Positions 2,124 to 51,695 are shown, counted from the first letter of the stretch. The stretch is DNA of 64,000 nt from a virus (IMGVR_UViG_3300028591_000002:46718-110717), one strand, 5' to 3'. Numbers and translations: made by a program. Notes: generated by a model from the sequence alone, not told the origin.

Positions 2124-5100
2124 ATGAATGACTATTTTTTAAATTATGTAACGAATCCAGAATTTAATCCTAGAGATTTTTCTTAGGTGGGACTAGATGC
2201 TACTAATACTTCTATAAAGCCTAAAAGTATCTATGAAGGTTTAGACAGTGTTCAAAAAATTCCTTTATTATAGACAAATGGAAAATTTGATTAGGATAAA
2301 TTTAATATAGCATATAAGAATGCTTTAGATGGATATAACGATTTAACTGCTCAAAAATATAATCAAAATGCTATAGATAATATAACTTATTTTAGAGATG
2401 ATATTTTTGCTCCTGTAGAAAAAAGAAGAGTTGGACCTGATTTTGTAGTATCTAAAGTTGCAAATCCAATGAAATAGACCACTGGATTTAGAAATTTTAA
2501 TGTTCAAGAAGAATCCAAATGGTCTTTAAGAGAAGTAGCAGAAGCAAATAAGGTATATGATCCAATTACTAAGAAATATTTAGATGTTTCTCCTAATGAT
2601 AGAGGGTTCTTTAAAAATTTATTTGATCCTTTAGTATTAGCTACTTGGGATTATGATGCAGATGAAAATGGTAATAAAACTAATGACCCTTCTAAAGTAG
2701 TTTATACAAAAGGAAGTCCTAAATATGATGAAGAAGGAAATCCTTATTATGAAAAATTAGGAGGCAGAAGTATTTATGGCAAACAAGTATTATCATCTTG
2801 GGATACTCTTACTGTAGATGGTTCTGCTTGGAATAAATTTGACTTTTTTGATGCTGATGACAAAGAATCTTCCACTACTAAAACTTTAGTAAGAGATGTT
2901 ATTAAAGTAGCTCCAGCATTTATACCTGGAATTAATACTTGGTATATAGGAGCTAGAGTAGTAATGAATATGGGGGATTTAATGGCTAAGGCTTCCAAAA
3001 TATTTACATTTGATAGTGATAATGCTACAGCTTCTAAAATAGAAGGAATGTTTTAGGGTTTATCTTTTTCTACTTCAGACTATAGTTCAGAACACACTTG
3101 GTCAGTGGAAAATATATTAAACCTTGGAGCAGATGTATTTACTCAATTAGCTGAGCAACGTTGGATATTTAAAAATATACCAAAATTATATGGTAAATAG
3201 GATATAACTAATGATTTAGAAAGGCAAAAATTTCTACAAGACGCAAGAAGTACTAGATATAAAGAATTATTAGCGGATTTAGAAAAAAATCCTTCTCAAT
3301 ATGCTTTAAGAACTACAGAAGACCTTATTGCTTCTGCAGAACATGCTGCTCAAAGAGACTTAGTTAATTTCTCTGATAAAGTTTCAAAGTTGGGAGAAAA
3401 ACTTTCTAAGTTATATATGACTGGAGTTACTGTAGCAGATTCTTATGGAGAAGCTAAATAGTCTGGTTTAAGTGATTTTGAAGCTGCTTTATTTACTTTA
3501 GGATATGCTTCTGGTGAATATTGGTTATTAAATACTGGAGTAGGAGAATAGATTCTTCCAGAATTAAGATTAGAGAAAGCTAGATGGCGTAGAGCTGCTC
3601 AAATATTAACTTCAGAAGGAAGACCCGAAATTTCAGCACCTAAAAGTGAAAAGTTAACTTGGATGCAGAAATTCTTTAACTTAGGAAAGATGGCTGCTAC
3701 GGGGGATACTTCTGAAGCTTCAAAATCTTTTGGAAAAAGATGGGCAAATACTTTAAAAGATATTTTTACTGGAGATTTGTAGGAAGCTTCTACTTTAGGA
3801 GGTTCTATGTTTAAGACAGCTTTAGCCCATTCTTTGGGAGAAGGTGTTGAAGAAACTTCAGAAGAATTACTATTAGACCTTTCTAAAACTTTATTTAATG
3901 CAGCTGCTTGGGTAGCTGGAAGTGATTCTAGAATGACTCCTTGGGAAAATATAGGAGACAGATATGGAATGTCTTTTGTAGGAGGTCTTATTGGTGGAGG
4001 ACTTGGAACTGGATTATCTGTTGATACTTTTAAATAGTTTCAAAATATCCAAAATATGGATAAAACATAGGCTTTTTAGGAATTAGTTCATTTAGTAAAA
4101 GAAGGTGAAGGAGAAAATTTTCTAAAAACTGTTAATAGACTTACTTTAGGTAATAAATATTTAAAATTCAGTGGAGATGGGGAAGTTGTTGTTGATAAAA
4201 ATGGAAATGTAGAGTATGCTTATCAACAAGGAGATTCTTAGGATAATATGGATTTAACCTATAAAAAACAATTAACTAATTATGTGTAGGCTATAAATGA
4301 TATATTAACTACTGAGGGTGCCAGAATTTCTGATGATTCTCTTATTTCTAGATTTTTAGGAGATTTAAAAATGTCTAAATTAGCTAATTCTAATTTAGCT
4401 GGGTCTTACTTATAGGAATTTAATTCTGTAATATCAAAGATAGTTAATCTATCAATTCAATTGAGAAATCTAAAAGAGGGAGGTTCAGACTCTCAAGATT
4501 CTAAGAAAAAAGAAGAAAATGCGGAACAAATTTCCAAATTAGAAGCTGAATTAAAAGAAGCTAGAGAATTAAAGGAATCTTTTTTAGATGGAACTAAAGG
4601 TGCTGCATTTGTAAGACAGGCATTATTTGAAATGCTTGATAGAATTTCAGAACCTTGGATTGATACTAATTTTATAAGTTACGCAGAAAAAGCAGAAAAG
4701 AAATCTATAAAAGATATACCTGAAGCTAGATTAAAATAGCTTAAAGAAAAATGGGATATTATTGTAGGGGGAAGTTAGGTTGATAAAATACGTCAAATAG
4801 CAGATATTTTTGAACTAAACAACAGAAATATAAGTCAGCCTATTAAAGACTTTATAAAATAGTATTTTGAAGAAGAAACTTTGTTAAGTAAGATAGCTAA
4901 GAAGTATAATTCAAAATTAATGAATTTAAACTTTCAAGCTGCTTAGGGAAAGATAACTAATGAAGAATTTCTAAAGAATTCAAAGGAGTTCATAAAAGGA
5001 GATGAATGGTTATTTGCAGAAGCCCTTGCTGAATTTACTGGAACTGAAAATATTGTAGACAATATAAAAAATCAAATATTAAGTGCAGACGACTTAAAAT

Positions 5101-8100
5101 CTGAGGATATGTAGTTTACTCCAGAATAGCTACAAGATTTAATAAATACCATACAATTTCATACTGGAACTCAAATTACAGACCCTTTTACAGAAATAAC
5201 TGATGAACTTTTACAAAAAACTTAGAAAGGAAGATTAGAACAATTTATAGGAAATACAATAGTAAATAATTAGAATAAACTATTAGAAGATTTTAAAAAT
5301 AGTCAATTTATTTCTCCAGAAGTACATGATTTTATAAGAAATCTTTTAAATAAATTTAATTTTGATGAAGTTCTGAAAGGATAGCTTTCAGCAATTATGA
5401 AAGATTTGAAATATATTCCAATACAAGAACTTCTAGATTTTTATTCAGTAGGATTAGGGGGATAGAAAATAAGTGAAATCTTAGAATACTTAAGAAATCA
5501 AATTAAATTTCTAAATAAGTCCGGAAATCTTCAAGAATTTGGATATGATGGGAAAGTAGAAGAACAAATAAAATATGCCCATCAAGTTATTTAGATGCTT
5601 GGCTCTCACATTTTGGCTGCTAGAACAGATGAAATAAGTTTAGGAAATCTTTGGGGTTATAATGCAACAGTAAATAAATTAGATAAAGAGGCTAATTTAG
5701 CTGAATTAACTAAGGAATAGGCTAATACTATTTTATATAATTTAAATAATTTTGATAGAGAACTTACTTTTTATGAAAATTTATTCAAAGTAAATAGTGG
5801 TCAAAAATTATCTGAATAGGCTAAGATTAATACTAAAACTCATGTATTATTTGTTAAAACATTAACTAATATAACAGATACTGCTCCAGATGATTTGGAT
5901 GAAATGAAAGCTTTAAAAAAGGTTTTAGATTCCTCTATTTTAACTAAGTCCTTAATTGATTCTGAAGAACCTGATTATTATTTATCTGAAGAAGACCAAA
6001 TTAAATTAGAAAAAGAAAGACAAAATATAGAATCTGCTTTACATAATTTATTAAATGTAAAAGATTTTGATTTAGGAATTTTTATAAATTCTTAGAATTT
6101 TAAATTTATATAGGCTAATAACCAAATCTTAAATCTTGAAACAGAAAATGTTTCTCCTTAGAATTTTATAGCTTGGTTAGCCTTCACGGCTGCTGTAGAA
6201 CCTAAGGCTTTTTATAGAGATTATATTGACTCTATAGCAGAAGATTTTGCAGCAATTCCAGGACAAGAATTTGCTTTAAAAACTTCTTTAGCATTCTTGT
6301 TAAATCCAGATAAATTTTATAAATTTGGAGACAAATATAATGAAGTAGTTGAAAACGAAATTGTAAATCAAGAAGATGATGATGTCGATAATAATTCGGC
6401 AGTAGGGTTTGATAATCTTAAGCAATTCCCAAAAGATTCTGACTCTTATTTAAAATATTTACATACTTTCTTAATTGAAGGAATTGCAGGCTCTGGAAAA
6501 TCTACAGCAATGTTTTCTTTAATTTTAAGAATTATTAGAAATAGTGAATTTAAGGATAAACTTCTTAGTAATGTTTGGATTGTCCATGGTGTAGAAGATC
6601 CAGGAGTAATTGATACTAATTCAGAAGAATATAAAAATGGAATAGCAGCAGGTTTCTCTGAAAGTGATTTATATAATGGATGGAGAGCTTATCTATTAGG
6701 GTTAAAATTAGGATTTACTCCAGAAGAACTAGTTGGTAAGTGTTTTAATAGAGCATCTTATCTTAAGAAAATTTCAGTTGGATATAATAATTGGAAAACT
6801 GATAAATAGGGAAACATTTTATACGATGGTATAAAACTTAGAACTAATTCAGATACTTTAACAACTGTATATGATGTTGAATTAAATAAGAGTATTGAGT
6901 CTCCTTCAATGATATTAATGGATGAGGTGACTAGATTTTCTCCTTAGGATTAGGAATTATCAGAGAGATTTCAAATTGAAAGAAATATTGCAGCTGTAGC
7001 TGCAGGAGACTTTTCTCAATTATGTGCTCAAGGAATACTTAAAACTGGAGACGATGCAGAGATTTTAAGAAATCATAGAAATAATTTCTTTTGTAGTCCA
7101 AAATTAGGAACAGCTTTAAGACCTAATAATAATCTATAGGATTAGGCTACAAAAATAATTAGAGAAAGTCTTGTAAATCCTGATATTACTAGTTAGTATA
7201 ATGCTTTTTTTGAAGCTGCAAAAGACTTTTATGCTTCTAATGATGCAGAAGGATTAAATGAAGTAGAAAGCATTAAAGTCCCTTATTATGAAGAAGAAGG
7301 TAAAGGTTTGTATGGACTTAAGATAGAATCTAATGATGTAGTTTATTATGAAGGAGAACTCTCTGATGAAGAAAAAGCTAATTATGTATCAGAGTCTTTA
7401 TAGAAGTCTATAACAAATTTACTTAGAACTTTAAAACCAGGAGAACAACTTCATTATATCTGGGATGGTATTGAAGATTCTTCCGTTAATAATGGAGCTT
7501 TAAGAAAATTCTTAAGAAATTTAAATGAAGCTGGAGAGTTTAAAGGAAAAATAGACTTTACTAAAAATGGTGCTTCTCAAGGACAAGAAGGTCAATATTA
7601 TATCGTGGATTTAACTTTACCTGCTAAAAACGATATTTACGCTGGAGAATAGAGATTGGAAAACGAAGCTAAATTAGATTATTTAAAATATATCTATACA
7701 GCTGCTTCTAGAGCTACTCAAGGAACTCTTATTGTTACAGACCTTTCTTTGTTTGAATCTGAACAAGCAGATTTAATAGAATCTAATTTAAGTACTGAAT
7801 CCATAAAAGCTTTTAATGAGTAGAGAAAGAAAGTTCTAAATGAGTCTTTAGGAGATTTTAACGGGCATTTACAATTAGTTAATCCAATAAAAACTCAAGT
7901 CTCTACTGATTAGCCTGCTACAGATGTTGTAGAAAGTCAAACTGATACTTAGGCTGGTTCTGAGAATGGAGATGGTTAGAACGAAGACTTTGCTAATGAT
8001 AATAATATCCCATTTTTAAATCCAATAGAAAATAAGGATGATAAACATTATAATATGTTATTACATTCTATGCCAGCTAATGAATCTGGTTTAAGAGAAG

Positions 8101-11072
8101 TTGAAGTTGAAATAGAAGGAAAAATAGTTAGAAAATTAAAGAGAACTGAAGCGGATTATAAAAAAGGAGCTAAAAACTTAGGTACTAGAATTGATAATAT
8201 TCATGGATTAGTCTAGGGAACTATGGATTAGAATGGGAATATAGTAGAAAAGTCTATTTTATCTGGATTTGTAACTAATCCTTCTGATTTACCAGCTTTT
8301 ACATCTGATGATACTTTAGATGATTAGGATAAAGCTATAAAATTATTAGAAACAATTAGAAATTTAGGTTTAACTGAAGAAGATAAATCTCAATTAATAA
8401 ATAAATTAAATTATGCTTTAGGAATAAAATCTGGAGTTACCATAGGAGTAGATTATATGTTTAAATGTTCTACTCAATATCCAGAAAATGAAAAGAAAGG
8501 AAAAGAAACTAAACATAAAAGTCGAAAATTCTTTAGATATATACAAGAAAAAGTCTTAAATATATTTAGTTCAAAACCAAAACAACTAGAACCTAAGAAT
8601 AAAACTATTGATATGGTTATATATGCCATAGGTAAGGATGGAAACAGAGTAAATATGTTAGACATTCCTTTAGTTGTATTTACAAGTCCTTATACAATGT
8701 TAAATACTTCTGATTTTGCTCAATTAAAAAGCGATTTTAATAGTATTTATAATAAGGACTTGAAAAAGATGTTTATAGGTTTATAGAATAAAGCAAATAA
8801 GACTCCTTAGGAAATGTTAATGTTACAACATATTCAATTATTCTATTTAAATGAAGATTTTGTTCATTATTTTGATTGGGGAAATGATACTTTAGTATCA
8901 AGAGCACAACAATCTACTGGAATATTTACATCTTTCCATTAGAGAGGTATAGTAGGAGTTACTTATTAGGAAGAAGGTTTCGAATACGGTGGAAAATGGA
9001 TGACTTTAGATGAAATTAAACAAATTCCAGGAAATATAGTGTCTAATCAAGTATATGTTAATACAAAATAGGATGTTTATTTTGGAGAACCTTACGGAAA
9101 GAAATCAGCTATTTTAAAAGGACATCCATTTATTTTAGTATCTAAGGATTCTAGTTATGAGGCTTATAGTGATAAAGATAAAATGATGTTAAATGATTAT
9201 CTGGAATGGATTAAAGATCCTAATAAAAAACCTAAGGTATCTAGAATTTATGTTTCTTCTCCAAAATCTAATGTTGGACAATATATAAGAAATTTATCTT
9301 ATGTATATGAAAAGGGAAAAACTTCAGATTCTCAATTTGGTAATATGATTGCTTCTTTTAGAATTTTACAACTTATAGCTAAGGACAATTCTAATTTTGA
9401 TAAATCTTTAGAAAAGTATTTTTTAGATTAGAGAACAACTCCTGATGCTGCAAGTTTAGGAGAAGCTGCTTTTAGACCTACATGGAATGGAATTAAAAAA
9501 GGAATTTCAGAAATTAATAAATACATAGAAGAAAATCTAAAAGAAACTGGAGTTAAAGAACGCAATATTGAAGAATATGAAGTAATTCGAAAATTATTAC
9601 AGACTTCTATGGAAACTTTAGCTCAAAAAAATCCAAACATATTTAAAGCAATTATTCCAGAAAATGCCAATATACATAAATATGAAAAATCTAAAGTAAC
9701 TCTAAAGAATTATCTACAGCAAAAATTAGTAACTTTTGTAATGTTAGATAGTGAAATAGAAACTTTAGAGGATGGAAAAGAAGCAAAAGCTTTTATTAAA
9801 GCTCACAGTGATGTATTTGAAGACGATGAAGCAAAAGTAAAGGATAAATATACTTATGTTAAAGCCAAAATAGAGGCTATGAAAGCTGACCTTGATGGTT
9901 GGAAGACTTCCGAAGATACAGAACCTGGTATATATTATAATTTAAAATTAAATGAAGCAGGAAAAATATCTGATGAATATGTTCCAGTAAATCTTAGCTT
10001 AGTCTCTTATTATGGTGCTCCAATAAGAGTTAATGGTAAGTTAGATTCTCCATCTTTTACTTTTGATGTATTACCTCTAATTCAAGAAATTTTAACCACC
10101 TATTCCACAAAAGATGATACTACTGAATATAATGATTCTTTTTGGAAAAATATTAAACCTAGTGGTACTAATATGAAACCAAATAGGTTTAATAAACATA
10201 ATACTAGATTTTTATTAGGGGTTAAAATGCCTGTTATTCCTGAAATAAATCCTATTGTTGATTAGAATATAAAAGATATAGAAGGAAAACTTGACTCTAC
10301 AGTATTGTCTTTTTTAAATAATAGTAGTTAGGACCTTAATACTTTAAAACTTGAAGCTTTAAATAAGAAGATTTTATTAGCTGTTGATAATGGAAAAGTT
10401 GTAAAATATAGAAAATTAAGTTCTAATGAAACATATGATTCAGAACAAAATGGAAATTATGTTATAAAAGATAATACTGGAACATATTTTTATAGTGTTA
10501 AAGACTTAAGTGAAACTAATTATATTCCTAATGAAACAGAAAAATCTAAAGATTTTGAAAAATTAATGGAAAAAGTAGAAAATCTTTCCATAAGAAAAGG
10601 GGATTCTAAAATAGAATTTACTGAAAATAACTTAAATACTTTAATTCAATAGTCAAATACTTTCGAAGACTTTATAAGCAACATATTAGATCAAAACGAT
10701 TCTTCTATTTCTGATGAAGATTCAATAAAAGCTTTAAAGGAATATTATGATGAACAAAAATCTGCAGAAAAGGATAGTTTATCTTTATTCCCAATACCTT
10801 TAAAAATTGGCAGTGTAGAATAGGAATGTTCAGAATCAGATGTACTTTAGACATTAGTTAATTACTATGAAAATAATGTAGACGAAGAGAGTTTAGAAGA
10901 ATATAAATAGAATTAGAATGATCCAAATTTAGATAAACTCTTTGAAAGATACTCTACACAAATGGCTCTTAGAGAAGAAAATAAAGAAAATTTCAGACCA
11001 TATTTTGATAAAGTAATTCCTAAAATCTTTGATGAATCTGTTGATATTAATGATACTTATTGTAATACTTAA
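2124..11072 (+). CDS. ~2982-aa recoded giant virion cargo protein containing an SF1 (UvrD/RecD-like) helicase domain
   Basis: Fragments 3807, 4461, 5895, 6297, 8457, 9183 and 9609 share one frame. Walker A GIAGSGKS (6480-6503), Walker B LMDE (~6915-6926), AGDFSQL (~7002), SQGQEG (~7575), YTAASRA (~7695). GEGVEETSEE followed by a Gly-rich hydrophobic segment at ~3835-4020. TAA 11070-11072. Confidence 0.85.
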
Positions 11073-11077
11073 AAATT

Positions 11078-14000
11078 ATGAGTTGTATAAATTTAAAGGC
11101 TTTTAAAAGAGCCTTAGCTAAAAATATATATAAAGCAATAGACCCAACGTCTTAGCATATCGATAATGATATAGCTCAAGCTTTATTATCTCTAGAGAAA
11201 GAACTCTCTAAAGAGTATGGAACTGAATTTTCTAGAAAAGATTTAGTAGAAATCTTAGATAATTTACTAGAAAATCCGTTTTATACTTCAACAATTTCTG
11301 AAACTTTAGTTTTAGAACGTTTAAAAAGTAATTATAAAATAATTTTAAACCCTAAAACTAATATACAAGAGACTTCTGGTTAGAGTAAGCCTGCTAAGGC
11401 TGATTTTGATTCTAAAATAGAGGTAGGGGATAATTCATTCCTCTACCGATATTTTGGAACTTTTGCAGAAGTCAGAAATGTCTTTAAGAATAACTTTAAA
11501 CAAGACATAGTAAGAAATATACTTTTAGATTTAGAAAATTTTAAATTTGTAGATTCTGTAGAAAGTTTAAATGAAAATATAAGGAAGTTATAGGAATCTT
11601 ATGTTGATACTATTAAACAATATCTAGAATCTATAGGTAACGAACATATAGCTAAATAGATTACCCCTATTTACGACATTCAAAAAGTTAAAACAATAAG
11701 AGATGTGTTTAATCCTGAAGTTCTTGACTTTTTGTCGGAACATTGGGAAGTTGATGATAAACTATCAACTATAATAATTGATAAGAATAATTTAAAATAT
11801 AGAGCCTATTAGAGTTTTGTAGCTCTAATGACTTTTGATAATTTATTAAAATCTATTTTTGGAAAGACAATAAATATCGAAAGAGAAGGAGTTTTTGATA
11901 ATGTACATCTTAATAATTATAATATTGTAAATGCTTCTACCATGATTACTAAATGGATGGTAGATGATGATACATATAATGAAATTGAACAATTAAGTGG
12001 AGTAGTAAAATTATTAATTTCAACTTTTCCTAAATATGTCGGGGATAAATTAGACCCAGTTGGAAATTTAATGGATTTTAATGATGTTCAACAATTATAT
12101 TCTAAAATATTATAGTTAAGTAACTATTTTTCTACAGTAATTCCAGGAGATTCTGAAGTAGGTGTTTTAGATGAAAAACCATTAGCTATGGTTTCTCCAG
12201 ATACTCCTTTAAAAAATATAAAATTAACAGTTTAGGAAATAAAAAATTGGTTGGCAAACACTGTAGGAAATAATTTTGCTGAGTATTATGTAAATAAATT
12301 TGTAAGAGGTAAGAATTTATCTTAGATAATATCAGCTACTAGAACTAATCCAACTATAGGATTACCTATTTTATTTTATATATTAAATAGAAAAAGTGAA
12401 TGGTTATTATCTCAAAAATTAATAAATAATACTCAATATAATGCTTTAAAAGGTTTATATTATAATATTTTTGATTTATCTAACACAAATAGAGGTAATA
12501 ATACTATTCCTCCTTTAGTTTTATTTTCTTTAAAGCAAAATGCTGGAAGTACTTAGCATAATAAAAATTATTATAATAGTGTATGTCAAACTTTAATATC
12601 TTCAGCAGGAATTAATAGATTCTAGGAATCCTTAAAAGGAGATACTACTGGAGTTGTAAATATTAAAGATACGAAATAGACAATACAATTAAAATAGTTA
12701 AATTGGGAACTTAATGCTAAATATAGTATAAAAAATACAAGATTTTAGTATGGTTCTGAAGATATCTTTAATTATAGATTTTTAAACTCTGCAGAAAGAG
12801 GAGATAACAAACAACTCTTTGAAGTGAACTTTCAATATAATAAGAAAAATAAACTACGAATAACTTAGAATACGCAGGGAAAAATAACTATTTATAAAAA
12901 TGGGTAGGAAGTAACAGAGAATGTTGTATTTGATAAATCAGATTTAATATCATTACGTCCTTTTTTCTAGGAAGCATTAGGTTTAAATTTTAAAGATTCC
13001 CAGTTTACAGATATGTTTATTTTAGGGCAAAGTGGAGATATTAATAATGTAAATGGCCCTATAAAAACTCTATTAGAATTTATTATAGGTATTCTATATA
13101 TTGCAGAAGCAAATAGAACCCTTAATTCTAGACACGAGGCAGAAGCTGATACTTTTTATGATGCTTTTAAAAATCAATATTTTGAAGAAGGTTCAGCTAT
13201 TCCTTCTTTAAGAAAAGGCGAAGATGTAGTTCAAACTGATGTTATTACTAAAAAAATGTTTCCAGTATTACAATCTTTATCTGAAACTCAACAATTTTCA
13301 GAAGGAAGTAGTTCTGAGGGTACTGGAAAAAGTGGTGATGGTAGTTAGTTAGCTTTACAAGGATTAAATATGTTAGGAACTATTCTTAGAGAGTAGTTTG
13401 ACGAACAAAATTCTAAAGCAGATAGTGCAACTAAAGGATTTTCTATATTAAAAGCTTTTAATGGATTAACTATCAAAAGAGGGGTAGATTCTTGGGATGG
13501 ATTTAAAAATAGTTTAAAATTTAATGCTTTAGAACATTTTAGTTCTTCTTTCCTATATGATTTTTGGGCTTCTATAAATAAAGCATTAGAAAGTAAACAC
13601 CCAGAAAGAGAAATGATTTTAATCCATTCTGCAGTTATTTCTGATAAATCAAATATTCCTTACATATAGATTCCATTATCATTTTTTGGAAAAGTAACTA
13701 AAACTGGATTTAGTTTTCATTTAGATTTACCAAAACTTAAAGCTAAAATAGAAGAAGAATTTGGAAATTATTATTCTATAATGTGGAATAATATTGTAAA
13801 GGATTTTAAAGAACTAGGTGCAAATTTTAATCCTTTAAATAATTTTACTGGAATAAATACTTTAGCCAATTAGCATGCACAAGAAATATCTTAGATTCCT
13901 TAGAATTGGGCTAAATTACGAAAGAATTATATTAAAAAAGTATTACATGATGCTATTGTTGCTAAAAATTCTAAAGTAGAAATTATTGAAGGACTACATT

Positions 14001-17000
14001 ATTGGTTCGATAAAGAAGGTTTTATAAGAGTAAATCCTACAATTATAAATCAACTTTATAGATGGGGAAAACTTGGAAATACTGTTACTCCAGAAGAAAT
14101 AAGTTTATTAAAAAAGAATATAGAAGAAATTAATCAGAAATTAGAATTATATTTTCATATAATTGACAAGAAAACTTTTGAAACGGCTACAGAAGAAGAT
14201 TTAGAAATGGAAGCTACTATTGATAAAGACCCAGACATAATACTTTATAGAAAATATATAGCTACTCCTATAAATACTTTATTGTGGGATTATCAAATAA
14301 ATGAAACTGCTAAAGATTTCTGGAAAAGAAAGGAAATACAAGTAATATCTGATTTGATTCAATTATCTCCTAGACCAATAACTATTAAAAAAGCAGAAAA
14401 AATAAAACCAGGATTAAATGCTTTAAATACTGCCTTAGTAAAAAATAATTGGACTTTAGGAAGTAATATGATATTACTTAAAATATTTAAAACTTCTTAG
14501 GGAGTTGAAAGTCAATATAATATAACTTCTTAGTTAGATTTAAATAACTGGTGGCCTTTAGAATTATTACAAAGATTTGCTGAAGAACTTCAAATTGATT
14601 TTGATAAAATAAATATTGATAATGCAAAATTTGATTTATTATATACTTTAAAATAGATAAATTCAAATTGGAAAACTTTACTTATTAAAAATAGGGAGAA
14701 GTATTTAGGAAATAAAATTATCAAAAGTCTTCTTAATTAGGATTTAAATCCTTTAATTCAGGGAAAAACTGAAAGAGTCTTAAAAAATAAGGCAAAAAAG
14801 GAATTCATGAGATACTATGGTATAACCTCTAAAGAAGATTCTAAATTAAAAGATTTTGAAGATAATTGGAATAATTTAACTAAAAATAGTGCAGGATTAA
14901 CCAAAAGAGATATTTATCTTAAATATGCTTTTTTAAGGGAAAGTCCTAATTTTAGAGAATCTTATACTGGACTTTTAAATGATTCTAAATTATAGCAACA
15001 ATTAATAACTGCTGGACTCTTAAATCAAGAAGATTTAGAAATAAAAGACCTTGATTCTAAATTTAAAATACAAGTTAATCCAGAAATAGCTAGATACAAT
15101 GCTTTGGATTTTTGGATGGGAGAAGAATTTACTTGTGCTACTGTTGGTACTTTTGCTAATCACCCATTTAAGAATAATCCGTTCAAAACTGACGTACGTT
15201 ATATAGAGGCAGAACAATATGGACAAGAAACAAAACGTACTGTTACTATATCTTCTTCTAAACATGCTTATGCTAGAGGATTAATTAATGGTATAAAGAG
15301 AAGATATACTGTGGCAGTAGCAGAAGATTTAAAAGATGCTGTATATAATGTTTATGGAAAGAAGGATTCTGCAACACCTTTAGATGGTGCTACTTTTGGA
15401 AATACTTTAACAGCAAATTTAGAAAATAATTCCTTATAGGATTAGGCTGTTGGAGAAGATAGAAAACCTATTGCCCATGCTCATCATAATGCTACAGGTT
15501 CTGGAAAAATTGTAAAAACAGCTATGTTTGTAGCGGTTAATTCTAAAATTAGAGATTGTTACAATTTTTCTTAGTTAACTGAATAGGAATATATGTCTGG
15601 AAAAGTAAATGGTTTCTATGGTATTTTAAATAAACATATGAATAAAGTTAATTGGACAGATGAATTAGGAAATATTAAAGCTTATAACTGGACTAAATCT
15701 TATCAAGGTACTACTATTAAATATAAACCTTCATATGTTTATAACCCATATAATAAAAAACATTATAAAATAATAGCTACTTTTAATGAAGCTACTCAAA
15801 ATACTTCAATTCAATGGTTAGAAGTAACTAGTAATGGAGAAGAGACTGGTAAAAAATATAATTTTAATGGTTCTGATACATTAGTAAAAAGGATTACTTC
15901 TAATTGGGACTTATGGAAATATGTATTTGGTGGAGAATTTTCCGAACATATTGGGAATGATGGAAGGTTAACTTATGAGAAAGACGGAACTTCTTTTGAT
16001 AATTTAACTAATGCCGCTATTTATGTTGCCGACAGTAAACTAAACTCTGAAGCAAGTTTTAGTAGTGATGACTTATGGTAGCCTTTAAAAGAATGTTGTA
16101 TCGATTATATTATAACTGCAGGTGCTATAAAACAAGGAGCAGCTAATGTAAATACTACAGAAATTTACACTAATTCAGATTACAATGTTACTACTATGAA
16201 GTTGGATACTTTTGATTTAGGAATTCAACTTAATGCAGAACATCATGCAGATGAAGCAAAAGTATCTTTAATGACTTAGGTTGTAAATGCTATTGGAGCT
16301 AGGGGATTTAGTTATGCTTCAGCAGAAAAAATATATAATGGACTTTGTTATTTAACCGAATCTTCTATAAAAGACATTTTAAATGGATTAAATTTATAGC
16401 AAAACTCTAATGATGTAGATTCTATTAAAAATGCTATGTTAAAGGTATTAGTTAAAGTGTTGGAGTACACATCTGATACTGATGGTAATATTTTAAATTC
16501 TATAGCAGCAAATCTTAAATAGAATCTTAAAAGTGGAAATTTAAGATATAGTTAGGTACTTGGAGATTTACCTTTAAGCCATCCAGCTATTTATAATCAA
16601 ATTGTTAGAAAGTGTGCTTCAGAACTTGAGAAAGTAGCTGTTAGAATTAAATTTCCAGGAGGTATGGATGTATTAAATCCTTCTAATGGAATATATTAGT
16701 TAATAGGAAATGATATAAAAGGTAGATTATCAGCTCAAGAAATAGCTAAATTACAAGAAGAAGCTAATGCTAAAAATTTAAAGGCCTATGAAATAAAACT
16801 TGAAAGAAGTTATTATATAGAAAATAATGGACAAAGAGAAGTAGTATTTGTAGGAAATCCAGAAGTTTTATGGGATTTAAGGAATAGAATTAATAAAGAA
16901 AATTTAATAGTACATGAAGCTGTAGAATTAGGAAGAGAATTAGGAACTTATGATGCTATAATAACTACTGGAAAAGAAGGTGCTCTTGAATATTATACTT

Positions 17001-20000
17001 TATTTGATTTAGCTTCTATTCATAAGTGTTATAAATATCAAAAAATACTTGATGATGATTCCAGTACTCCAGAATAGAAAAAGGAGGCTAGTAAAAATCT
17101 TATTCTAAGTAAAAGACTTTTACAATAGGATTTAAATGCTTTAGGTTCTGGACATAACAAATATATTACTGTACTTGATGCTGAAGGTAAAGAAGTACGA
17201 AAATATGTTAGAAATGTTTCAGTAAATCCTTATGAAATTATTTTACCTAAACATTATGAAACTACTTTTGGATTAAGAGCTGAAGATAACTTATCTGAAA
17301 TAGAGAAAGATAAATTCTTTTTCTTAAAAAGAGTTTTAGAGCAATTAGAACCTAAAACTTTAATAAGTAATTTTGATGTAGAATTAATAACTCCTTCAGG
17401 AAATAACTTTTATTTATTAAATAAAGGAAATTCCGTACCTAAAAATCTTACAAAAGTAGAGAATCTAAATACTGAATGGGATGGAGAAAATTTATGGTTA
17501 TTAAATATTAGAAATGAGAGACTTTTCACTATACCATATACTGAAAATGAAGGGGAAATAATTCCAAACATAACTATTTATAATGACTTTAATGGAGTTC
17601 AAATTATAGAAACTGATAAATTAGATTATTTTCTTGACTCTTTAAATTATACTTCTGTAAGAATAGGTAGTGCAAAAGTTTCTAATGAAGGAATTTTAAA
17701 TTTAATTGGAGCTTTACAGAATTCTTCAAGTCCATTAATTAGAAGTCTTTTAGAAAGTCTTGGAGAAGATGGAAATTCATTAGTCACTAATTTAAAATAG
17801 TATAGAACAAACTTTAATAAGTAGTTAAAACAACTTAAAGATGGGCTTAGAATTGGCAATATTAATGTTAATGAATTATCTCCATTTTTTAAATAGGTAA
17901 TTAAAAATTCCTTAGAAGTTCATACTTCTTTCTTGAAATCTTTAGAATATATAGTTTCAAGAACTCCAGCTCAGTCTCACCAGTCTTTCATGGCTATGAA
18001 AGTGGTTGGATTTGATAATAGAGGATTAAATTCTGCTTATGTTTCTAGATGGTAGATTTGGTTACAAGGTTCTGACTATGATATTGATAAGGCTTCTGTA
18101 TTAGGATATCAATTTAGTAGAGGTAAATATATAGGATGGAGTAATTTCTTTAATTATGATTCTATAGAAAAACTAAAAGAATCTGAAAAATTACCTTTTC
18201 CTAATGGTAAAGAGTTAGAAAGACTCTCTGAAGAACAAATAAATGCTAGAAAAGTAAGAGCATTTGATTATATGGTTGTTAAAGATATTGACTTGATATC
18301 TGAACCTAATAAAATTACATATACTTTTGGAGATGGAACAAAAGTAGAAATTCCTACTAATTATGATGGAGAACATTATACTTATAATTTAATAGAAAAT
18401 TAGGAAATAATAAATACTTTAAATCCTATACAAAAGTATTTATTAGCTAATGCTTTAAAAAATAAATTAAATGATTAGGATATAGTATTATTACCTAAAT
18501 CTAATAACGGTTATAATTTTGAGAAATTAGGAATTGATAAAGAAGGTGTATATAATTCTATGAATACTGATTATACCTACGATATAGCGTATTATTTATT
18601 AAATATAGCTGATCCTGGAAATCTAGCTGAATTTATCAATATCTTAAGTTCTTTAGGATTCGTTCCACATAATGATATTTTGACTCCATATTTTAAGGAA
18701 TTTGATGTCGATAATTAGGATATATTGAATGACTTTATCATAGTTAATATGCATAATCTATACTTTGAAAACCCTAAGAATAAGGGATTAAGAAGAGAGG
18801 CTTTAATGAACTTTATTTCTTCTGTAATGGCTTAGGCTTCTTCTTCTCCAGAAAACTTAATATAGGGACAGTCTGGTGTAGACTCTGAAGTTGATAAAAC
18901 AAGTACAATACTTAAAAGACCTGAATTTTCTAAATTAGCAGCTCAAACTCAATTCTTTGATAGAGGAGCCGTAACAAGTAAATTTAGGTAGTTAGTATTA
19001 ACTTTAGCAGGAAAAGAGAATGTTGGTGTTGTAGCTTCTGCAATGAAAGTATTTGAAGCTATGAGTTAGTATTATTATTAGGTTTTAAATAGAGGTTCTA
19101 AAAAAGAATAGGAAGCTTTATTATCTAATTTACAACTAATGGGCAGAAATATTAGACTTATAGCTAATTCAGCAGTTAGAAATAAAGTAGATATTAAATC
19201 TTAGGCAGTCTTAGATGCTTTAAATGAAGTTGATAATGATTTAGATGCTTTCTTATTATTTTCTGCCTTCCTAAGTATGGCCACAGATAATGCTAAAGAC
19301 CCTAAATTAGCTAAAATTAATGCAGGTCCTGAAATGATGGGAATTTATACTGCTGGATTTGTGTTAGGAGTAGATTTAGAAACTCTTATTTCAATAGCTT
19401 TATCAGAAACAGGACTAGTAATTTCTCAATTACAAGGTGGAAATGTATTTGAAGAGAACTTAGGATTTAATAGAATTTCTCAGGCTATTCAATACTTATA
19501 GAATGGTCCTAATTTAAATTATCTTAAAGGGGAAAGTGATATTATAAATGTTTTAGGAAAAACCTTAGGACTTCCTTCAAAGGAATCTAAAGGTCCGTAT
19601 AAAACTAATTATCAAGCAGTTGTTTAGGCAATAAACGGTTTAAGTTTTAAAGGTAAAAAAACTTTAATTAAATCCCTTAGAGGTTATCTAAGTAAAAATG
19701 AGGAAAAATAGGAAGTTAATTAGGATGCTTTAGTTTATAATGTTAGAAGAAGATTAAAAAGAGAATTAGCCAAAAAGCGTAAAAGCGTTGAAAAGCTTAA
19801 TCTTAAAGAACAAACTAAAGGAGCTCTTACAGAAAAAGAAAACGCTAGAAGAAATAATTATAATGTATCAATTTCTCAGTTATAGGAGCATATTGAAATT
19901 TGTGGATAGTTATTAAGAGGTTTGATTAAACCAGAAAATATTGAAAATAATGACTATCTTAAAAATTTATTCTCTTCTAATATTATTGATTTTAAAGAGA

Positions 20001-21901
20001 CTTTAAAGAGTTTTAAAGAATATAATTTTGAAAGTAAAAATAAGAGAGAACTTTTACGTAAATTATGTTAGGATATAGAATTACATCTATATTATACTGA
20101 AAAAGTCTAGGGAGATTATATGACCGATGATGAAGGGAATCAACATGAAATACTTTCGATTATAAAAACTTTAGATAATTTTAACTAGGAAATGGGAACT
20201 TTAAGAGGAGACTTAAAATTAAATTAGGGACTACCTAATGGAATTGAAGACCAATAGTCCTTTATTTCTAGTTTTGAATCAGGATTTAAAACTTTTTGGA
20301 CAGAGGCTAAAGAAACTCCTCTTTTAAAGGCTTTAAAAGAAGTTAATACCAAGTTACTAGGTTCTGATATAGATCCTAAAAATATTTCTTTAAAACATTT
20401 TGTTCTAAATACTCCTGTTGCAAGTTTTCTTTAGAAAGAAGGTTCTGTAGACGGAGAATATTAGAACTATGGATATAGAGATTTAGTTCAAGATGCTTAC
20501 GAGGGAATAAAAATAGGTGTAAACATTTATAAAGTAATGTGGGATATTGCTCATTATAGAGGATATTTAGAAACTGTAGCTGTACTACAAGGGGGATTAG
20601 AATCTGTAATGGGTATTTATAAAAAATCTAATGAAGCCGTTAATATAGTTAATTAGTATTATGGACAATGTTCCGCTGCAGATGCTATTAAACGAAATAA
20701 AGCAACTACTAACTTTATTATCAGAAAAATGAATAATATTTATTTACATACTATATAGTTAAATATAAATGGAAATAATATTATGTTAGGTACTAAAGAA
20801 GGAAATGCTGCTTTTAGAAAATGGATGGAAATTCAAGTATTTCCTGAAATGAGTAAAACATTATCTCTTAATGAATTTGTTAAATCTTTAACTACTACTG
20901 TTTATAATTTTAATCCTAGACATAATACTACTATAAATTATACTTCTAAAGTTTCTATGTCTCCAAGAAGTGATTATGAAATAGTTATATTTTCTAAAGT
21001 TAAATAGGCTTTTAATAGATTATAGTCTAAAGACCTATATAATTGTGGTTATTCTTTAGTAGATTTAATATTCTTTTATAATTTAATTGCTTATAATGGA
21101 ACATCTGGAAGATCTTCTTTCACAAATTTATTTGAAGATATAATTATAAATAAAGGAAGTGCTGCTATTAATAATTATAATAAATATATTTCTTAGTTAG
21201 ACTTAAATCCTGATGTAAACTTTAAACTTTCTAGTTAGGATATTTAGGAATTATTAGTAGAAGCAGCGCCTGTTGTAACTATTTCGGATTTACTTTCTGG
21301 AAAGAAAAAACCTATAAAAGCATGGGTTTAGGATGAAAAAACATTTAAATTTCATTTAGTTGAAAGAATAGACCGTACTACTACTAGAGGTGATATTCCG
21401 GAGTACATGACAGAGGAATTTATGGGTGAGTGGGAATCGCCTGATATTCCTGAGGATGTTCCTATGGATGAAAATATTGGAGGAGAAATCGATGAAGAAA
21501 TTGTTTCTAATAGAAAAGGAATTAGAGAAGTTGCTGTTCCAATTGATTCTGATGAAAATTCTAATATATATAAAAGCTTTAATTATAAAGAAGTAGCAAT
21601 CTCCTCTAACGACTTAATCTCTCCAGTTTTAGATTCTTATGATTTTGTATCAGAAAGTAAATTATTAGAAACTGAAAAAACCTCTATTTTAAGTCTTATT
21701 GATGATAAAAAAATAAAAAGGTATAATAACCAAGACTTTGAAATAACTTTATCTCCAGATAAAGGAGAAATTAAAGTTAAACTTGGAGATCATACCTTTG
21801 ATGAAGTAGCTGTTAAACTTATTAAAGATGATAATGGTATTCTATATTATGAAGTTGATTTAGAAAAAACATTAGAAAATGATAAAAATTGTAATAATTG
21901 A
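11078..21901 (+). CDS. ~3607-aa crAss-like virion RNA polymerase (two-barrel, beta/beta'-like), recoded TAG=Gln
   Basis: Ten track fragments (11828 to 21407) lie in one frame. Catalytic GSDYDIDK at 18068-18091, preceded by RTPAQS, matches the DFDIDK-type motif of crAss-like virion RNAPs; also DGATF and GIQLNAEH segments. TGA 21899-21901. Confidence 0.9.
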
Positions 21902-22968
21902 TGAATGCTTGTGATATAAATATTAAATCAGATAGATTCCAGACTTTGAAACATAAGTCTGGAGTCTCTGATTCTGTTTTAGCTACTACTGTAGCTGAAA
22001 CTCAAAATAAATATGGAAGAAATCCTAATTTAGATGAAATACCTGGAGCTAATTCAGAAGTATATTTGAGAAAAAATATTAAAATTGATGAAAATAATTT
22101 AGCTGAAACAGAAGAAATACTAGAGTATACTAATACGACTACTCCTGAAGAAGCTATGATTAAAATAAATAATTAGATGCATTAGGATTTAGAAGTTACT
22201 ATTTCTCCTGTTGGTTCCTTATCTTTCGTAAATATAAAAAGAAGACCAAGTGCATATGATTTAAAACCTAAGCCTTTTGTTGAAGCTCAAGAAGATGTTT
22301 CAGATTCTAAAAATACTATGGCATTAAGATTAATGCTTGATAAATTTAAAGAAAAATATGGAATAGACATAAAATATGTTGATTCTAATGAAATAAAAGA
22401 TATGAATATACCAAACGCTGGAATAGTAAATGCCTTTGTGTATAATGGAGATATTTATGTAAATACGGATGTTGCTAATGTGAAAACATCTTTAGTTCAC
22501 GAATTAATGCATATATTTCTAGGAGCTGTTAGATTTACTAATCCAGAATTATATTTTTCTTTGGTATCTTCAGTTGAAGAATTGGATTATTATGAGGAAA
22601 AAAGCCTAGATTATCCAAATAGAACTAGAAATGATGTAAATGAGGAAATATTTGTTTCTGAATTTTCTAAATATATTACTGGAATCCCCAGCTTATTTAA
22701 TAATTTAGATGAAAAAATTCTAAATTAGATAGATTATGACGTTAAAAGAGTTTTGGACTCAATGTTAATGGGAAACTACAGTGTTAATAGCTTAAAAAAT
22801 CCATATATGAAATCAATAGTGGACTTAGCCAGATTAACAGAATCTACTGTAGTTAATCAGACAGATAATTTGGCTTTTATTCAATATTCTTCTAAAATAC
22901 ATAGATAGGTTTCTAATTTAAAGGAACAGTTATTTAAGGAAGATAAACTTGTAGAAGATTGCGTATGA
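21901..22968 (+). CDS. 355-aa zincin-like metallopeptidase, virion cargo locus (recoded)
   Basis: ATG overlaps the RNAP stop (TGATG); fragments 21898 and 22318 are in frame; HELMH (HExxH) at 22498-22512 with a downstream EE at 22642-22647; TGA 22966-22968. Confidence 0.85.
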
Positions 22969-25900
22969 AATGTACTTATACTTTAAATAATAGAACTTTT
23001 AATTCTGAATTAGAATTAGAAGAATATTTAATAAAGAATTCTCCCTATCTAAAAGATATGGGAGATGTAGTTTTTGATAGAAGCAATTATTAGAATTTTG
23101 CTACTAATAGATTATTTGAAGTTCATAAGAAAGTAATGGAGACTACTAAAACTAAAGTTAAAGTAAGATCTGTTGAAGATATAGAAAATATGATAATTAA
23201 TGGGGACGATATCTGGGATTTAGATGATATGATTTCTTTAGATACTGATTCTTATATTACTATATCTGATTTAATTAGGTCTATGAGTACTGTAGAAGGG
23301 TATTAGTTAACTCCAGTATTTAGGCCTGAAGAATATTGGAAGAGAGCTTAGGTAGCTTTTGCTGATATTGCTAGTTTTTAGGAAGGTTCCGATTATTATG
23401 GATTAATTCCATTTATATTTGATAAAAATTCAGATGGTTCTTATGATATTCATGCTATTACAGATTAGGAAGAATTTAAAAAGGCTAGAGAACACGTAGA
23501 ATTTGTTTGGAAGACTCAGAGTTTAATTGGTACTGCAGTTCATAATGCTATAAGTGAATATTATAAAAATTGTAAAGACCATGACCCAGAAAAATTTTCT
23601 TCAGATAGAAATAAAATAAAAAATAGAATCTTAGAGAATCTTAAAGAGAAAGATAAAGAATATCTAAAAAATCATATAGATAACATTTTAGATATTTGTG
23701 AAAACTTTAATAAAAAATTAGTAGATAAGTTTGGAAAAGGGTGCATAGTCCTTCCTGAATATGCTATTTAGGGGGAAGGTAATTTTAATGGAAAATTGGC
23801 TTAGGTTGTAGGTCGTTTGGACTTAATAGTTTTAACAGAAGATGGAGCTTCCATAATAGATTTTAAATGTTCCCCTAAGGATTATAGAAATTATAATGAT
23901 ATTAAAGTTAGAACTTTTGATTATCAATTAGCAGCTTATAGAAGAATGTTAATTGAATCTGGATTAGTGTCTTCTAGACATAAAGAAAAATGTTCTTTGT
24001 ATGCAGTACCTATTAAGTTTGAAGGTTTTAGATATGATAAAGAAAGTAATAGTTGTTTCTATGATGAATTATCTATAGAAGATGATGCTTTCAAAGAATT
24101 AAGCGTGAGTTCTAAAACTGCTGGAGGTAGTGAGTATGATACTGTAGAAACTAACTTAGATCAAGTTTTTGTTCCTAAAGAAGATAAACTTCTAGATGTG
24201 AATGGAATATTAACAAATGTAAAAGATGAATTAGATGCTTTCTTTCCAGATGTAAATAATTCTAATGTTATTGATGATACTTTTGTAAAAGATTATATTG
24301 AAAGACACGGAGGTATAAGACCTAATTCTGATGGAGGTTTTGATTTTTATTGGAAGAAAAATCCTAAATATCCCTCAGACATTTTACATAAAGACACAGA
24401 AAAAGAGTTAATTACTAAAATAAAAGATATTTTAATTAGTAGACAACTTCGTATGGGAGAAAATACAGAAAGTATTATAAAATCCTTAAAAGAAGCTTGG
24501 GAGAAAGGAGATAAAAGATATTTTACATATAATGCAAAAAATTATAGAGGAGAAGGTAATAAAGAATACACTCAAGATAGACTTTAGAAATATGCTGATA
24601 TAAAATGGAAAATATTTGAACTTCCAACTGGATATCAAGATATTCTAAGTTCTATGGGTATAATTTTATTAGAAAATAAATATAATAATCAAATAGATGT
24701 AGTTAAGATTTCTAGTAGTGATTTAGAGCATAGAGTAAAATTAGGGGAATCCAGACATACTATATTTGGAAGATATTTAGATGATACTAGGGCAAATAAC
24801 AATAATACTCAAATTAAACCTTTAGAAAATTTTTAGGGAAATATTGAATTAATCTAGGCAATGGCCGTATTAAATCAATTATCTCCTGTTCTTGCTGATA
24901 AAATTATTGGAAATATTTAGGTAATAAGTCCAGATTTATAGTCTGGGATGACATCAAGTAATAAATAGCTCTTATATAATTATTCTACTTTATTAAGACT
25001 ATCAAATAAACAAAATAATTTCTATTATGCTGGAAAGGGAGATATAAAAATGGCTGGTTATGTAGATTTGGCTAAATAGAAATTACAAGAAATATTATTT
25101 GATGATACTGATAATGATTCTATAATAGACAATTACAAATTCAAGAAATTTAAAGGTTATATTCCTAAAATAGATGAATATAATAATGATTTCAATAAAT
25201 TATATATTCAATTAGATTTATTAAGAAAAGATATGGAGAAAGAGTTTGGTTCTCTTCTAGATAGTATAAATACAACTCTTACGGAAAAGAATGAAAATGA
25301 AGACCCAAAATACACCTTATATAGATATATTCTTATGGGGATGGGAGAATTAAAAGGAATTACATATTCTCAACAAGTTTAGGAACATGAAACTATACTT
25401 GATGGTAGCGTTAGAAAAATTCTTACTGAGGGTTGGAATGGAACTAGAATTGATAACCCAGGTTCTCTTAAAAATGATAATCTTAATAAATTAGCTGAAT
25501 TAACAATGCAGCAATATGATAAAGTTAGATAGGATTTAATTAGAGTAAATTATAAAGTAAGAGAATTAACTAAAAAACTTAAAGAAGATAAGCAATTTGG
25601 AAAGATTGCTAGGTATACTTTTGGAAATTAGACTTCTATGTATTCCAATATGTATGATTCTACAGTAAAAGATGATTTATATTTTAGAAATCCTTGGGAA
25701 GATGATGGACATCTTTCAGAAGTAGAAAAAGAGTATTTAAAATATGCTATTACTCTGATAAATATGTAGAGATATAATGGAATCACAGAAGATAATATTG
25801 AGGATTTAGTAAATGCTGACCCTGATAAATATTTAAGAGTTCCTCTAACTAAAGGTGATTTAGGAGCTAAAACAGCAAATAATGGAGGATTTTTAAATAT

Positions 25901-27896
25901 GATTAGAAGCAGGTTTAAAAAATTAGACTTAAAAAATGTTCTTACTGAAAAGTGGTGGGATTAGGCCAAAGATAAAATAAAAGATACTGTATAGAATATT
26001 TATGCAGAATCTGATGAAAATAAAATTAGACAAAGTCAACAATGGGAAATGGTTTCAGCTTTTTCATATGGGGAAAAAGAAGATACTAGAAAATCTGAAT
26101 TAAAAAAATATGGTAAAGATTATTATGAAACTAATTTAGAAAAACTTTTATTGAAACATACTTAGGCTTATTCTGCAAAAGAACATTTAGATTAGGTGTT
26201 TCCACTTTTTAAATCCATAATGTTACATATATCTAATTAGGGAATAGTTAAAAATGAATAGTTTGTAAAAGATTTACAATATGCATAGGATTTTATAAAA
26301 AGTAAAATATTTAATGCTCCATTAGAAGATGTAGATAAATGGGGATTTGCTCAATGGGCTGCTAAAAAATTAATGCAACAAGCTTCTAGAATTGCTTTAT
26401 GGATGAACCCTAGACAGTTATATCAGGGAATAGATGGTTTTTGGAAAGATATCTCTTTACTTATAAAAAATCCAGATGGTAAAGAATCATTTACTAAGAA
26501 AAATTTAACTGAGGCTGCTCTTTGGGTATATGCTGATATCAAACATTTCGGGGATGACTTTACAGAAGCTGAATTATTAAATCAAATGTATGGTCTTAAT
26601 GACATGGATGCTAATACTTTAGCTGATAGACTACATCAAGATACTGCTGGATTTTTTAATTTAGATTCCTTAGGTTTTAGATTTTCTTCTAGACCTGACT
26701 ATTATAATCGTTTAACCATATTTGGAGCACAAATGAAAGGAGATGGATGTTTCGATGCTCATCATATGGTTAATGGTAGGTTAGAATACAATTGGAAAGA
26801 AGATAAAAGATTTGATAAATTTGCAAATTGGACCGAAGAATAGTATAAAAATGCTAGTGCTGAAGATAAAGCAGAATATAATAAATAGAAAGCATTATAT
26901 ATAGCAATGGCTAAGGAATTTGTGGAAACTGGATTTAAAAATCCTGATGGAAGTGATTTTGTATTAGATTTAAATAAGAAATATGCTTTACCTAGAGCTT
27001 ATACAAATAGACAAGCTGAAAGTATGAAAGAACTTGCGGACAAGATTTATGGATATTATTCTCATGAAAAACGTTCTTTAATTCAATCTAATACTATTGG
27101 AGCAATGTTTTTCCAAATGTTTACATATGCTTCTTCTAAGAAAAATCAATATATTTCAGGAAGATTATATAATCAAGAAGGAGAATATGAGCATTACTAT
27201 GACACCTATATTGATGAAGAGGGTAAAGAACAAAAAAATTATTGGTATCAAATATTAGATGAAAATGGAGATACTCAAATAGTTGATTAGAATCATTTAC
27301 CGGAAGGAGCTGACTATATTCCATTAATGTAGTGGAAAGGTAGACCTTCTGAAGGGGCTATAGTAACACTAATGCGATTTGCTCAAATAGCTGCTTAGGG
27401 AGATCCAGAAACTGGAGAAAAGGGTATTTGGGCAGCTATTCATAATTATCAAAATGCAAAAGATGTTGATAAAGCTTTATATAGAAATAACTTAGGTTAG
27501 TTACTTTATGATTTTATAGGATATCTTTTTGTTGGAATATTCTTTGCTCCTTTAATGGTATCATTAGCTGAAGATTTCTCTAAGGATATTGGAGACGAAT
27601 CTTTAGTTCCAGCATTTATAGGTTCTTCTTTTACTATAGGTGCTGAATGGCTAAAAGCTTCTGGAGATGATTTTAATCCTATTATATCTTTAGGAGGTAG
27701 AGGTCTTACATGGACTCCATTCTCTTTACAAACTCTTTAGAGAGTTGGAAAAAATGTTGGAGGAGTAATAGGAGGATCTAAAGATGGTTATGATGCGTTA
27801 ATAAATACTTTTGGTGCTACAAGAGCTACTAAACCTGTTTGGAATGTAGTTAAACTTGATTTATTAGGAAGAGAAATTGGAGACAAAGGTGAATAA
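22965..27896 (+). CDS. ~1643-aa recoded giant virion cargo protein with a PD-(D/E)xK (AddB/Cas4-like) nuclease domain
   Basis: ATGA overlap with the previous gene; fragments 23817, 24654, 26373, 26907 and 27555 are in frame. GTAVH..PEY..GRLDL..IDFK..YQLAAY at ~23529-23945. TAA 27894-27896. Confidence 0.85.
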
Positions 27897-51466: not shown

Positions 51467-51695
51467 ATTCTTCTAAATCTATTAAACCAGTATGTCTTTT
51501 AATTACTTCATCTTCATTTATTAAAATTAATGTTGGAAGATTTTTAATTTTGTACTTATCTACTAATTCTTCATTATCCTCAACATTTACTTCTTCAATT
51601 TCAATATCTGGATGATTCTTTTTAAAATCTTCAAGTTTTTTACTCAAGACTTTACAAGGACCACACCAATCAGCATAAAAATCAATTAATTTCAT
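51432..51695 (-). CDS. trxA: thioredoxin
   Basis: DFYADWCGPC..LPTL. Confidence 0.93.
   Translation of the reverse strand: MKLIDFYADWCGPCKVLSKKLEDFKKNHPDIEIEEVNVEDNEELVDKYKIKNLPTLILINEDEVIKRHTGLIDLEEFVYGSENSSNG

Follow-up and report, generated by a model that had tools for sequence, protein, structure and literature searches.

Crassviruses are the most abundant phages of the human gut. One question about them is how a particle stores and injects megadaltons of protein, including an RNA polymerase (Bayfield et al., 2023, PMC10172136). The virus sequence IMGVR_UViG_3300028591_000002:46718-110717, a window of 64,000 nucleotides (nt) from a complete 178-kb virus record with terminal repeats (all coordinates are window positions), raises this question in a specific form: four consecutive genes encode a helicase-like protein, a virion-type RNA polymerase (RNAP), a zincin-like protein and a nuclease protein, and the ends at which these proteins face one another carry matched cysteines. 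We propose, with moderate confidence, that the four genes are a split polyprotein of injected cargo and that consecutive members are linked through their facing Cys, C-terminus to N-terminus, with a disulfide as the likeliest bond.

Under translation table 11 the cargo region contains only short open reading frames (ORFs); the genes are intact only when TAG is a sense codon, and an in-frame TAG is visible in the raw sequence near 22906. All cargo ORFs described here were translated with TAG read as Gln (TAG=Q); on the + strand this gives six long ORFs between 329 and 33385, with 4–74 TAG codons apiece. The four cargo proteins (Table 1) together comprise 8,587 amino acids (aa), and six of their six internal termini have a Cys 2–4 residues from the end. 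The outer ends of the chain have none (the first protein starts MNDYFLNY and the last ends ..GDKGE), and the upstream 597-aa protein, which ends PLTSQ, also lacks a terminal Cys. The helicase-like protein has no Cys in its first 1539 residues and the nuclease protein none in its last 381; in the zincin, Cys4 and Cys354 are the only two. A first-pass annotation of this DNA had reported the six cysteines, the Cys-free outer ends and upstream protein, the scarcity of Cys in the cargo and the tightness of the gene junctions (in order, a 5-nt gap, TGATG and ATGA), and each of these is borne out by the four clean TAG=Q ORFs: the cargo proteins contain 30 Cys (0.35%; 0.20–0.56% per protein) versus 1.76% in the 40 other window ORFs of at least 100 aa.

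The joint chance of finding a Cys within 4 residues at all six internal termini is 7e-12 to 2e-11, and among the 40 other ORFs a Cys that close to the end occurs at only 1 of 80 termini (Fisher p = 1.5e-8). Junctions as tight as these, two of which have C-terminal ends that read TGTAAT, might be thought to carry a nucleotide-level signal, or the pattern could be coincidental; however, p for chance is about 1e-11, and the Cys rule is kept at 22–45% identity with different codons and neighboring residues. The rule also holds in phages crAss001 and DAC15, in which the gene for the first protein is on the other strand from those for its partners, so the cysteines are not a DNA-level, gene-junction or translational-coupling signal. 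Ruled out in this way, chance or a DNA signal is an explanation that we regard as already refuted and to which we attach a negligible probability.

Conservation of the terminal Cys had been set beforehand as a test of the proposal, and the Cys proved to be near-invariant in homologs of 22–70% identity and in cultured crassviruses. For the zincin, a word-index search together with an exhaustive HMMER search provided 208 full-length homologs (25–70% identity); an N-terminal Cys (positions 2–6) is found in 204 of these and a C-terminal Cys (last three residues) in all 208, and in 102 the terminal pair is the sole Cys. The four N-terminal exceptions are truncated gene calls, as they begin at a conserved motif inside the protein (P0100, P0103, P0104 and P0119 begin at an EYQ motif, and their real start is probably upstream). 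Alignment of 89 diverse zincins leaves the columns C4, G154, H200, E201, H204, E248, E249, D286, N339 and C354 without variation, so that the two terminal Cys vary no more than the catalytic site does (HExxH plus the downstream Glu: H200, E201, H204, E248 and E249). Some zincin homologs are longer, 546–707 aa (P0066, P0093, P0175 and others); these contain an inserted ART-PolyVal ADP-ribosyltransferase domain (PF18760) and keep both terminal Cys.

The other three families follow the same rule. Helicase-like proteins have a Cys in the last 10 residues in 116 of 120 cases and in the first 10 in 0 of 120; their mean Cys content is 0.19%, and in eleven of them the C-terminal Cys is the only Cys. 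The RNAP homologs (22–50% identity) have Cys at positions 3–6 and in the last three residues in all complete, unfused members, the only departures being one truncated fragment and one fusion. Nuclease homologs start M-x-C (Cys3 is invariant in five of five aligned homologs and is present in L018), and their last 50 residues are free of Cys. Across the chain proteins the Cys lies 0–9 residues from the C-terminus and 2–6 from the N-terminus. Misassigned gene ends do not account for the rule: where a called start lacks the Cys, an internal M-x-x-C start is found. The called starts of crAss002 gp33 (L011:13088-13190) and of the L001 RNAP (L001:369-430), for example, are probably wrong, and the internal start gives M-x(1-3)-C. 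As an aid to annotation, the M-x(1-4)-C rule gives corrected starts for crAss002 gp33 and several metagenomic gene calls.

Cultured and GenBank phages provide the sparest version of the pattern (Table 1). The three cargo proteins of phi14:2 contain four Cys in 5,398 residues, all located at facing ends. With just one Cys apiece, g067 and g065 of phi14:2 and gp47 and gp49 of crAss001 cannot form an intramolecular bond; cyclization of each protein from its N- to its C-terminus, which we considered, is ruled out because several partners have one Cys only. The position of the HExxH zincin varies among these phages (L004 and L009–L011 were compared): the first protein carries it C-terminally in crAss001, LMMB and crAss002, the last protein carries it N-terminally in phi14:2, and in this window it is a free protein.

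Table 1. Cargo genes and terminal cysteines in the window, and the corresponding proteins of cultured and GenBank phages. C-terminal sequences run to the stop codon.
Feature	Position	Strand	Description
Gene 1, helicase-like cargo protein (P0001)	2124..11072	+	2982 aa; ORF with TAG=Q; chain start
Cys2980 of gene 1	11061..11063	+	TGT; third residue from C-terminus, ..TYCNT
Gene 2, virion-type RNAP (P0002)	11078..21901	+	3607 aa; ORF with TAG=Q; DYDID
Cys3 of RNAP	11084..11086	+	TGT; MSC start
Cys3605 of RNAP	21890..21892	+	TGT; third residue from C-terminus, ..KNCNN
Gene 3, zincin-like protein (P0003)	21901..22968	+	355 aa; ORF with TAG=Q; HELMH at 200-204
Cys4 of zincin	21910..21912	+	TGT; MNAC start
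Cys354 of zincin	22960..22962	+	TGC; second residue from C-terminus, ..EDCV
Gene 4, PD-(D/E)XK nuclease protein (P0004)	22965..27896	+	1643 aa; nuclease domain N-terminal; chain end
Cys3 of nuclease protein	22971..22973	+	TGT; MKC start
phi14:2 g067, first protein			1797 aa; 1 Cys, final residue
phi14:2 g066 (virion RNAP, vRNAP; PDB 6VR4), middle protein			2 Cys, Cys3 and next-to-last residue
phi14:2 g065, last protein			1421 aa; 1 Cys, Cys3
crAss001 gp47, first protein			2341 aa; 1 Cys, third from end
crAss001 gp50, middle protein			Cys5 and Cys nine residues from end
crAss001 gp49, last protein			1349 aa; 1 Cys, Cys5
DAC15 g61, first protein			1 Cys, third from end
DAC15 g63, middle protein			Cys5; last residue Cys
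DAC15 g62, last protein			Cys4
crAssphage LMMB			..SFSCM then MSC..
crAss002			..SFVCS then over-extended gene call with internal MSC start
cr113_1			..FICNL then MYKC, sole Cys of that protein
Flavobacterium phage FpV4			gp32, single Cys in 4287 aa, next to last; then MAC..

Fused forms exist for all three joints, and they reveal what becomes of the Cys pair when two neighbors share one polypeptide: none of nine natural fusions has a Cys pair at the fused joint. The zincin+nuclease fusions P0218 and P0267 have no Cys within 200 residues of the joint, and the linker length in P0218 equals that of the split form minus the overhangs; the RNAP+zincin fusion P0271 has no Cys at the joint; the helicase+RNAP fusions FpV4 gp32, cr113_1 gp38 and cr10_1 gp32 have none near it; and the RNAP+last-protein fusions in LMMB and crAss002 have none within 300 residues. 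In the genomes that encode P0208 (a second RNAP+zincin fusion), P0218, P0267 and P0271, each readable unfused joint retains its Cys pair. Thus, the pairwise correlation of facing Cys that the first-pass annotation called for is found: the pair is gone at fused joints and the other joints retain theirs. A FastTree tree of zincin domains contains at least three changes between the free and the fused state, with most branches poorly supported. The rule also separates gene splits at the protein level from intron-type interruptions. In L015:1-10004 a LAGLIDADG endonuclease gene divides the RNAP gene and, unlike in splits of the former kind, neither piece has a Cys at the break; the insert is probably an intron.

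These observations bear directly on whether the terminal Cys work in pairs or one by one. A Cys acting singly might bind the portal, the capsid or another copy of its own protein, might sense redox state, or might cap the active-site zinc of the zincin as a cysteine switch. Bonding partners cannot be read from sequence alone, and lone terminal Cys do exist in cargo-like proteins encoded upstream: an 861-aa protein of LMMB (L010:1576-4161; single near-terminal Cys in ..QSCR), crAss002 gp30 (L011:2393-4066; ..RCGGKKKIA) and FpV4 gp30 (L014:4054-5850; MKKKC..). However, the counts always match, one C-terminal Cys for each following N-terminal Cys; the outer ends never have a Cys (0/120); where two proteins are fused, both Cys of that joint are missing and the remaining joints are unaffected; and a cysteine switch fails for phi14:2 g067/g066, where the zincin is in the third protein. 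We consider single action improbable. The position of the Cys, their conservation, the depletion of other Cys and the loss of the pair on fusion suggest instead that the terminal Cys act in pairs across the joints between consecutive proteins, standing in for the peptide bond of the fused forms; the head-to-tail joining in gene order proposed by the first-pass annotation gains support from the conservation and from the loss on fusion.

If a Cys pair stands in for a peptide bond, the termini could also be substrates of a ligation, akin to native chemical ligation or trans-splicing, that makes a true peptide bond and releases the overhangs. Splice junctions do come to mind when one Cys is close to the N-terminus and another precedes a short overhang at the C-terminus, and the fused and split forms are in the same register. 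However, no Hint/intein domain is present at the junctions, and the overhangs beyond the Cys are so short (0–9 residues at C-termini and 1–5 at N-termini) that an intein would not fit; no candidate for a ligase was found, and virion proteomics of crAss001 and phi14:2 lists the three proteins separately. Ligation is therefore very improbable.

For pairs that remain as pairs, a disulfide is the most economical chemistry. It is favored because only the Cys is conserved at most termini (those of the helicase-like proteins and RNAPs have no further conserved ligand residues) and because internal Cys are purged, as if stray cross-links were avoided; the purge also fits redox chemistry better than a metal site. 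The absence of Cys from the ejected proteins of phage N4 and the intermolecular disulfides of the crAss001 tail point the same way. The first-pass annotation had allowed for shared metal sites, and the same facing termini might indeed be paired by a bridging metal ion (Zn, Fe or Cu) or by another non-disulfide link. Such a link could form in the reducing cytoplasm and would thereby solve the problem of assembly there; in addition, zincin C-termini conserve L-x-E-x-C and the N-termini often have C-x-N. However, a stable site usually needs three to four ligands, each side of a joint offers one Cys and most termini conserve nothing else, and a metal bridge would leave unexplained why proteins of 2,000–4,000 aa are purged of internal Cys. 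A metal bridge is unlikely in our judgment, although less so than the preceding alternatives.

With a disulfide as the link, we infer the following sequence of events. The helicase-like protein, RNAP, zincin peptidase and nuclease protein would be translated separately as a split 'polyprotein'; after translation the C-terminal Cys of each would bond to the N-terminal Cys of the next, and the disulfide would probably be made or locked inside the particle, beyond the reach of cytoplasmic reductant. The product would be a single unbranched thread of about 8,600 residues. Because the Cys are at the very ends, the joint would be barely thicker than a peptide chain, so the unfolded thread could pass through the portal and tail channel with order and 1:1 stoichiometry kept; the reducing host cytoplasm would then open the links and the enzymes would separate. 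In relatives with one polypeptide, the peptide bond would have the same role, and the zincin is thought to cut it.

Several points weigh against the disulfide-linked chain. Disulfides are unstable in the cytoplasm, where assembly occurs, so the termini must first meet in some other way; gut phages also inhabit an anoxic habitat. The bond itself is deduced from the sequence pattern, the proteins of this window resemble those of phi14:2 and crAss001 only weakly, and packaging and equal copy numbers in this phage are assumed from other crassviruses. Two fusions keep one Cys near the joint, P0208 about 20 residues upstream of it and the helicase+RNAP fusion P0131 within about 20 residues of it. 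In three of the four helicase exceptions the last Cys is 15, 22 or 38 residues from the end; the next protein still begins MNC, MANTC or MSKC, and a correlated loss of the two Cys is thus ruled out for these exceptions. Zincin C-termini conserve, in addition to the Cys, a Glu two residues before it that is a possible metal ligand. Finally, 24 internal Cys remain in the cargo proteins of this phage, so mispairing would be possible.

A wider claim is that across crAss-like phages the giant cargo proteins, although translated separately, are covalently joined head to tail into a linear thread in which disulfide and peptide bond interchange as genes split and fuse, so that order and a 1:1 dose would be fixed and the start of infection would rely on host reductants; for this generalization we see the balance as even. 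If the terminal Cys link is real, it would explain the order and stoichiometry of the cargo, how giant proteins follow one another through a narrow channel, and the near-absence of Cys in these proteins. As far as we could find, neither cysteines at protein ends nor disulfides in the cargo are mentioned in the crAss001 atlas, the gp66 preprint, the crAss genome survey, the polyvalent-protein paper or the N4 ejection paper, which suggests that an end-to-end Cys tie of crAss cargo into one thread is undescribed.

The assignments of the four proteins differ in strength. The gene 1 protein has a Walker A motif (GIAGSGKS at residue 1453); its own match to an NTPase profile is sub-threshold, and many of its homologs match PF13604, PF13245 or PF01443 (AAA_30, AAA_19 and Viral_helicase1). 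The RNAP has the catalytic motif DYDID at residue 2333 (window 18074-18088), and a DxDxD motif is also present in seven of eight homologs. BLASTP of the cargo proteins of the window versus those of phi14:2 and crAss001 gave no match at E <= 1e-3; an unfiltered RNAP family profile makes a weak local match (12–19 bits) to crass RNAPs around the catalytic loop, and its four included matches, all weak in that same range, are all RNAP-bearing proteins. The nuclease protein matches PF12705 at residues 186-332 (33.8 bits; cut-off 22) and the phrog_298 exonuclease (E = 2.6e-7); a PHROGs search gave no match for the other three cargo proteins.

The zincin is the most isolated of the four. It has no Pfam or PHROG match, and its profile has no match to phi14:2 gp65, crAss001 gp47 and similar proteins; tblastn versus GenBank phages identified only two records. 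An AlphaFold2 (AF2) model (pLDDT 92.6) places both Cys in coil tails outside the first and last helices, a position in which a Cys could meet its partner; fold searches with this model found no clear match (Foldseek best E 0.12; VIA best Z 3.8), and comparison with Pro-Pro endopeptidase gave Z 2.8 over 129 residues. The muzzle protein family PF25731 (crAss_MUZ) is encoded upstream of the same gene block in relatives L005 and L007; a search of this virus's own genome for the crass muzzle gave no match, and the search's own control gave none either. The cargo proteins of crAss001 and phi14:2 have been found in the particle by virion proteomics, and by extension the four proteins of this phage are probably packaged as well.

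The surroundings of the cargo genes contain further features. A BspA-type leucine-rich repeat (LRR) protein of 1774 aa (28061-33385, +; PF13306, E = 8e-167) follows gene 4 after a 164-nt gap; its 39 Cys (2.2%) include none at a terminus, which sets it apart from the cargo chain, and it is likely a host-binding or surface protein. A thioredoxin of 92 aa is encoded at 51468-51695 on the - strand (PF00085, E = 2e-19), and the relative L017 has one too; it is probably linked to nucleotide metabolism, and a phage thioredoxin could bear on the redox state of the cargo links. A search of the genome for an Erv1-type sulfhydryl oxidase gave no match, and its own control gave none either. Sense usage of TAG, in the Gln reading, marks the late + strand block, most genes on the - strand having zero or 1–4 such codons; no tRNA gene was found within the window, so any suppressor tRNA must be elsewhere in the 178-kb genome.

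The closest known counterparts are the RNAP cargo blocks of other Crassvirales (phi14:2 gp67-gp66-gp65 and crAss001 gp47-gp50-gp49), for which the three-protein cargo set, the fused polyprotein forms and the zincin have already been described. They, too, contain giant proteins grouped around a two-barrel RNAP with the DxDxD motif, together with a zincin and a module at the C-terminal end, and they obey the same terminal-Cys rule. The window differs in having four proteins, with a free 355-aa zincin whose Cys at each end makes a third joint; also, its late genes read TAG as Gln, and the similarity is weak and local. Polyvalent proteins likewise deliver many effector domains with the DNA and have the zincin as a hub domain, and processing by a zincin-like peptidase has been proposed for them and for the fused crAss polyproteins (Iyer et al., 2017, PMC5512222; Drobysheva et al., preprint 10.1101/2020.03.07.982082). 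Their modules, however, are peptide-bonded and thought to be cut by the peptidase, whereas here they are translated apart and apparently re-joined via Cys pairs.

The crAss001 tail contains intermolecular disulfides between tail hub and ring proteins, and unfolded passage of chains through the portal and tail has been proposed for the same phage (Bayfield et al., 2023, PMC10172136). Intermolecular disulfides can therefore exist in a crassvirus particle; however, those in the tail staple structural subunits side by side rather than connecting cargo proteins in series, and they are not designed to come apart on entry. Phage N4 (L021, EF056009, 14524-27524) also ejects a giant virion RNAP (gp50) with helper proteins, and it also strongly avoids Cys: its vRNAP (3500 aa), gp51 (644 aa) and gp52 (150 aa) contain 0 Cys in 4,294 aa. 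It differs in that there is no terminal Cys and hence no such link, the vRNAP being a single polypeptide of another RNAP family. AB toxins (diphtheria toxin and the clostridial neurotoxins) are not phage proteins, no homology is implied, and they differ in having one disulfide between two chains cut from one precursor in place of a head-to-tail row of giant proteins translated apart; the likeness is that this disulfide tethers a cargo chain that passes unfolded through a narrow channel and is freed by reduction in the target cytosol.

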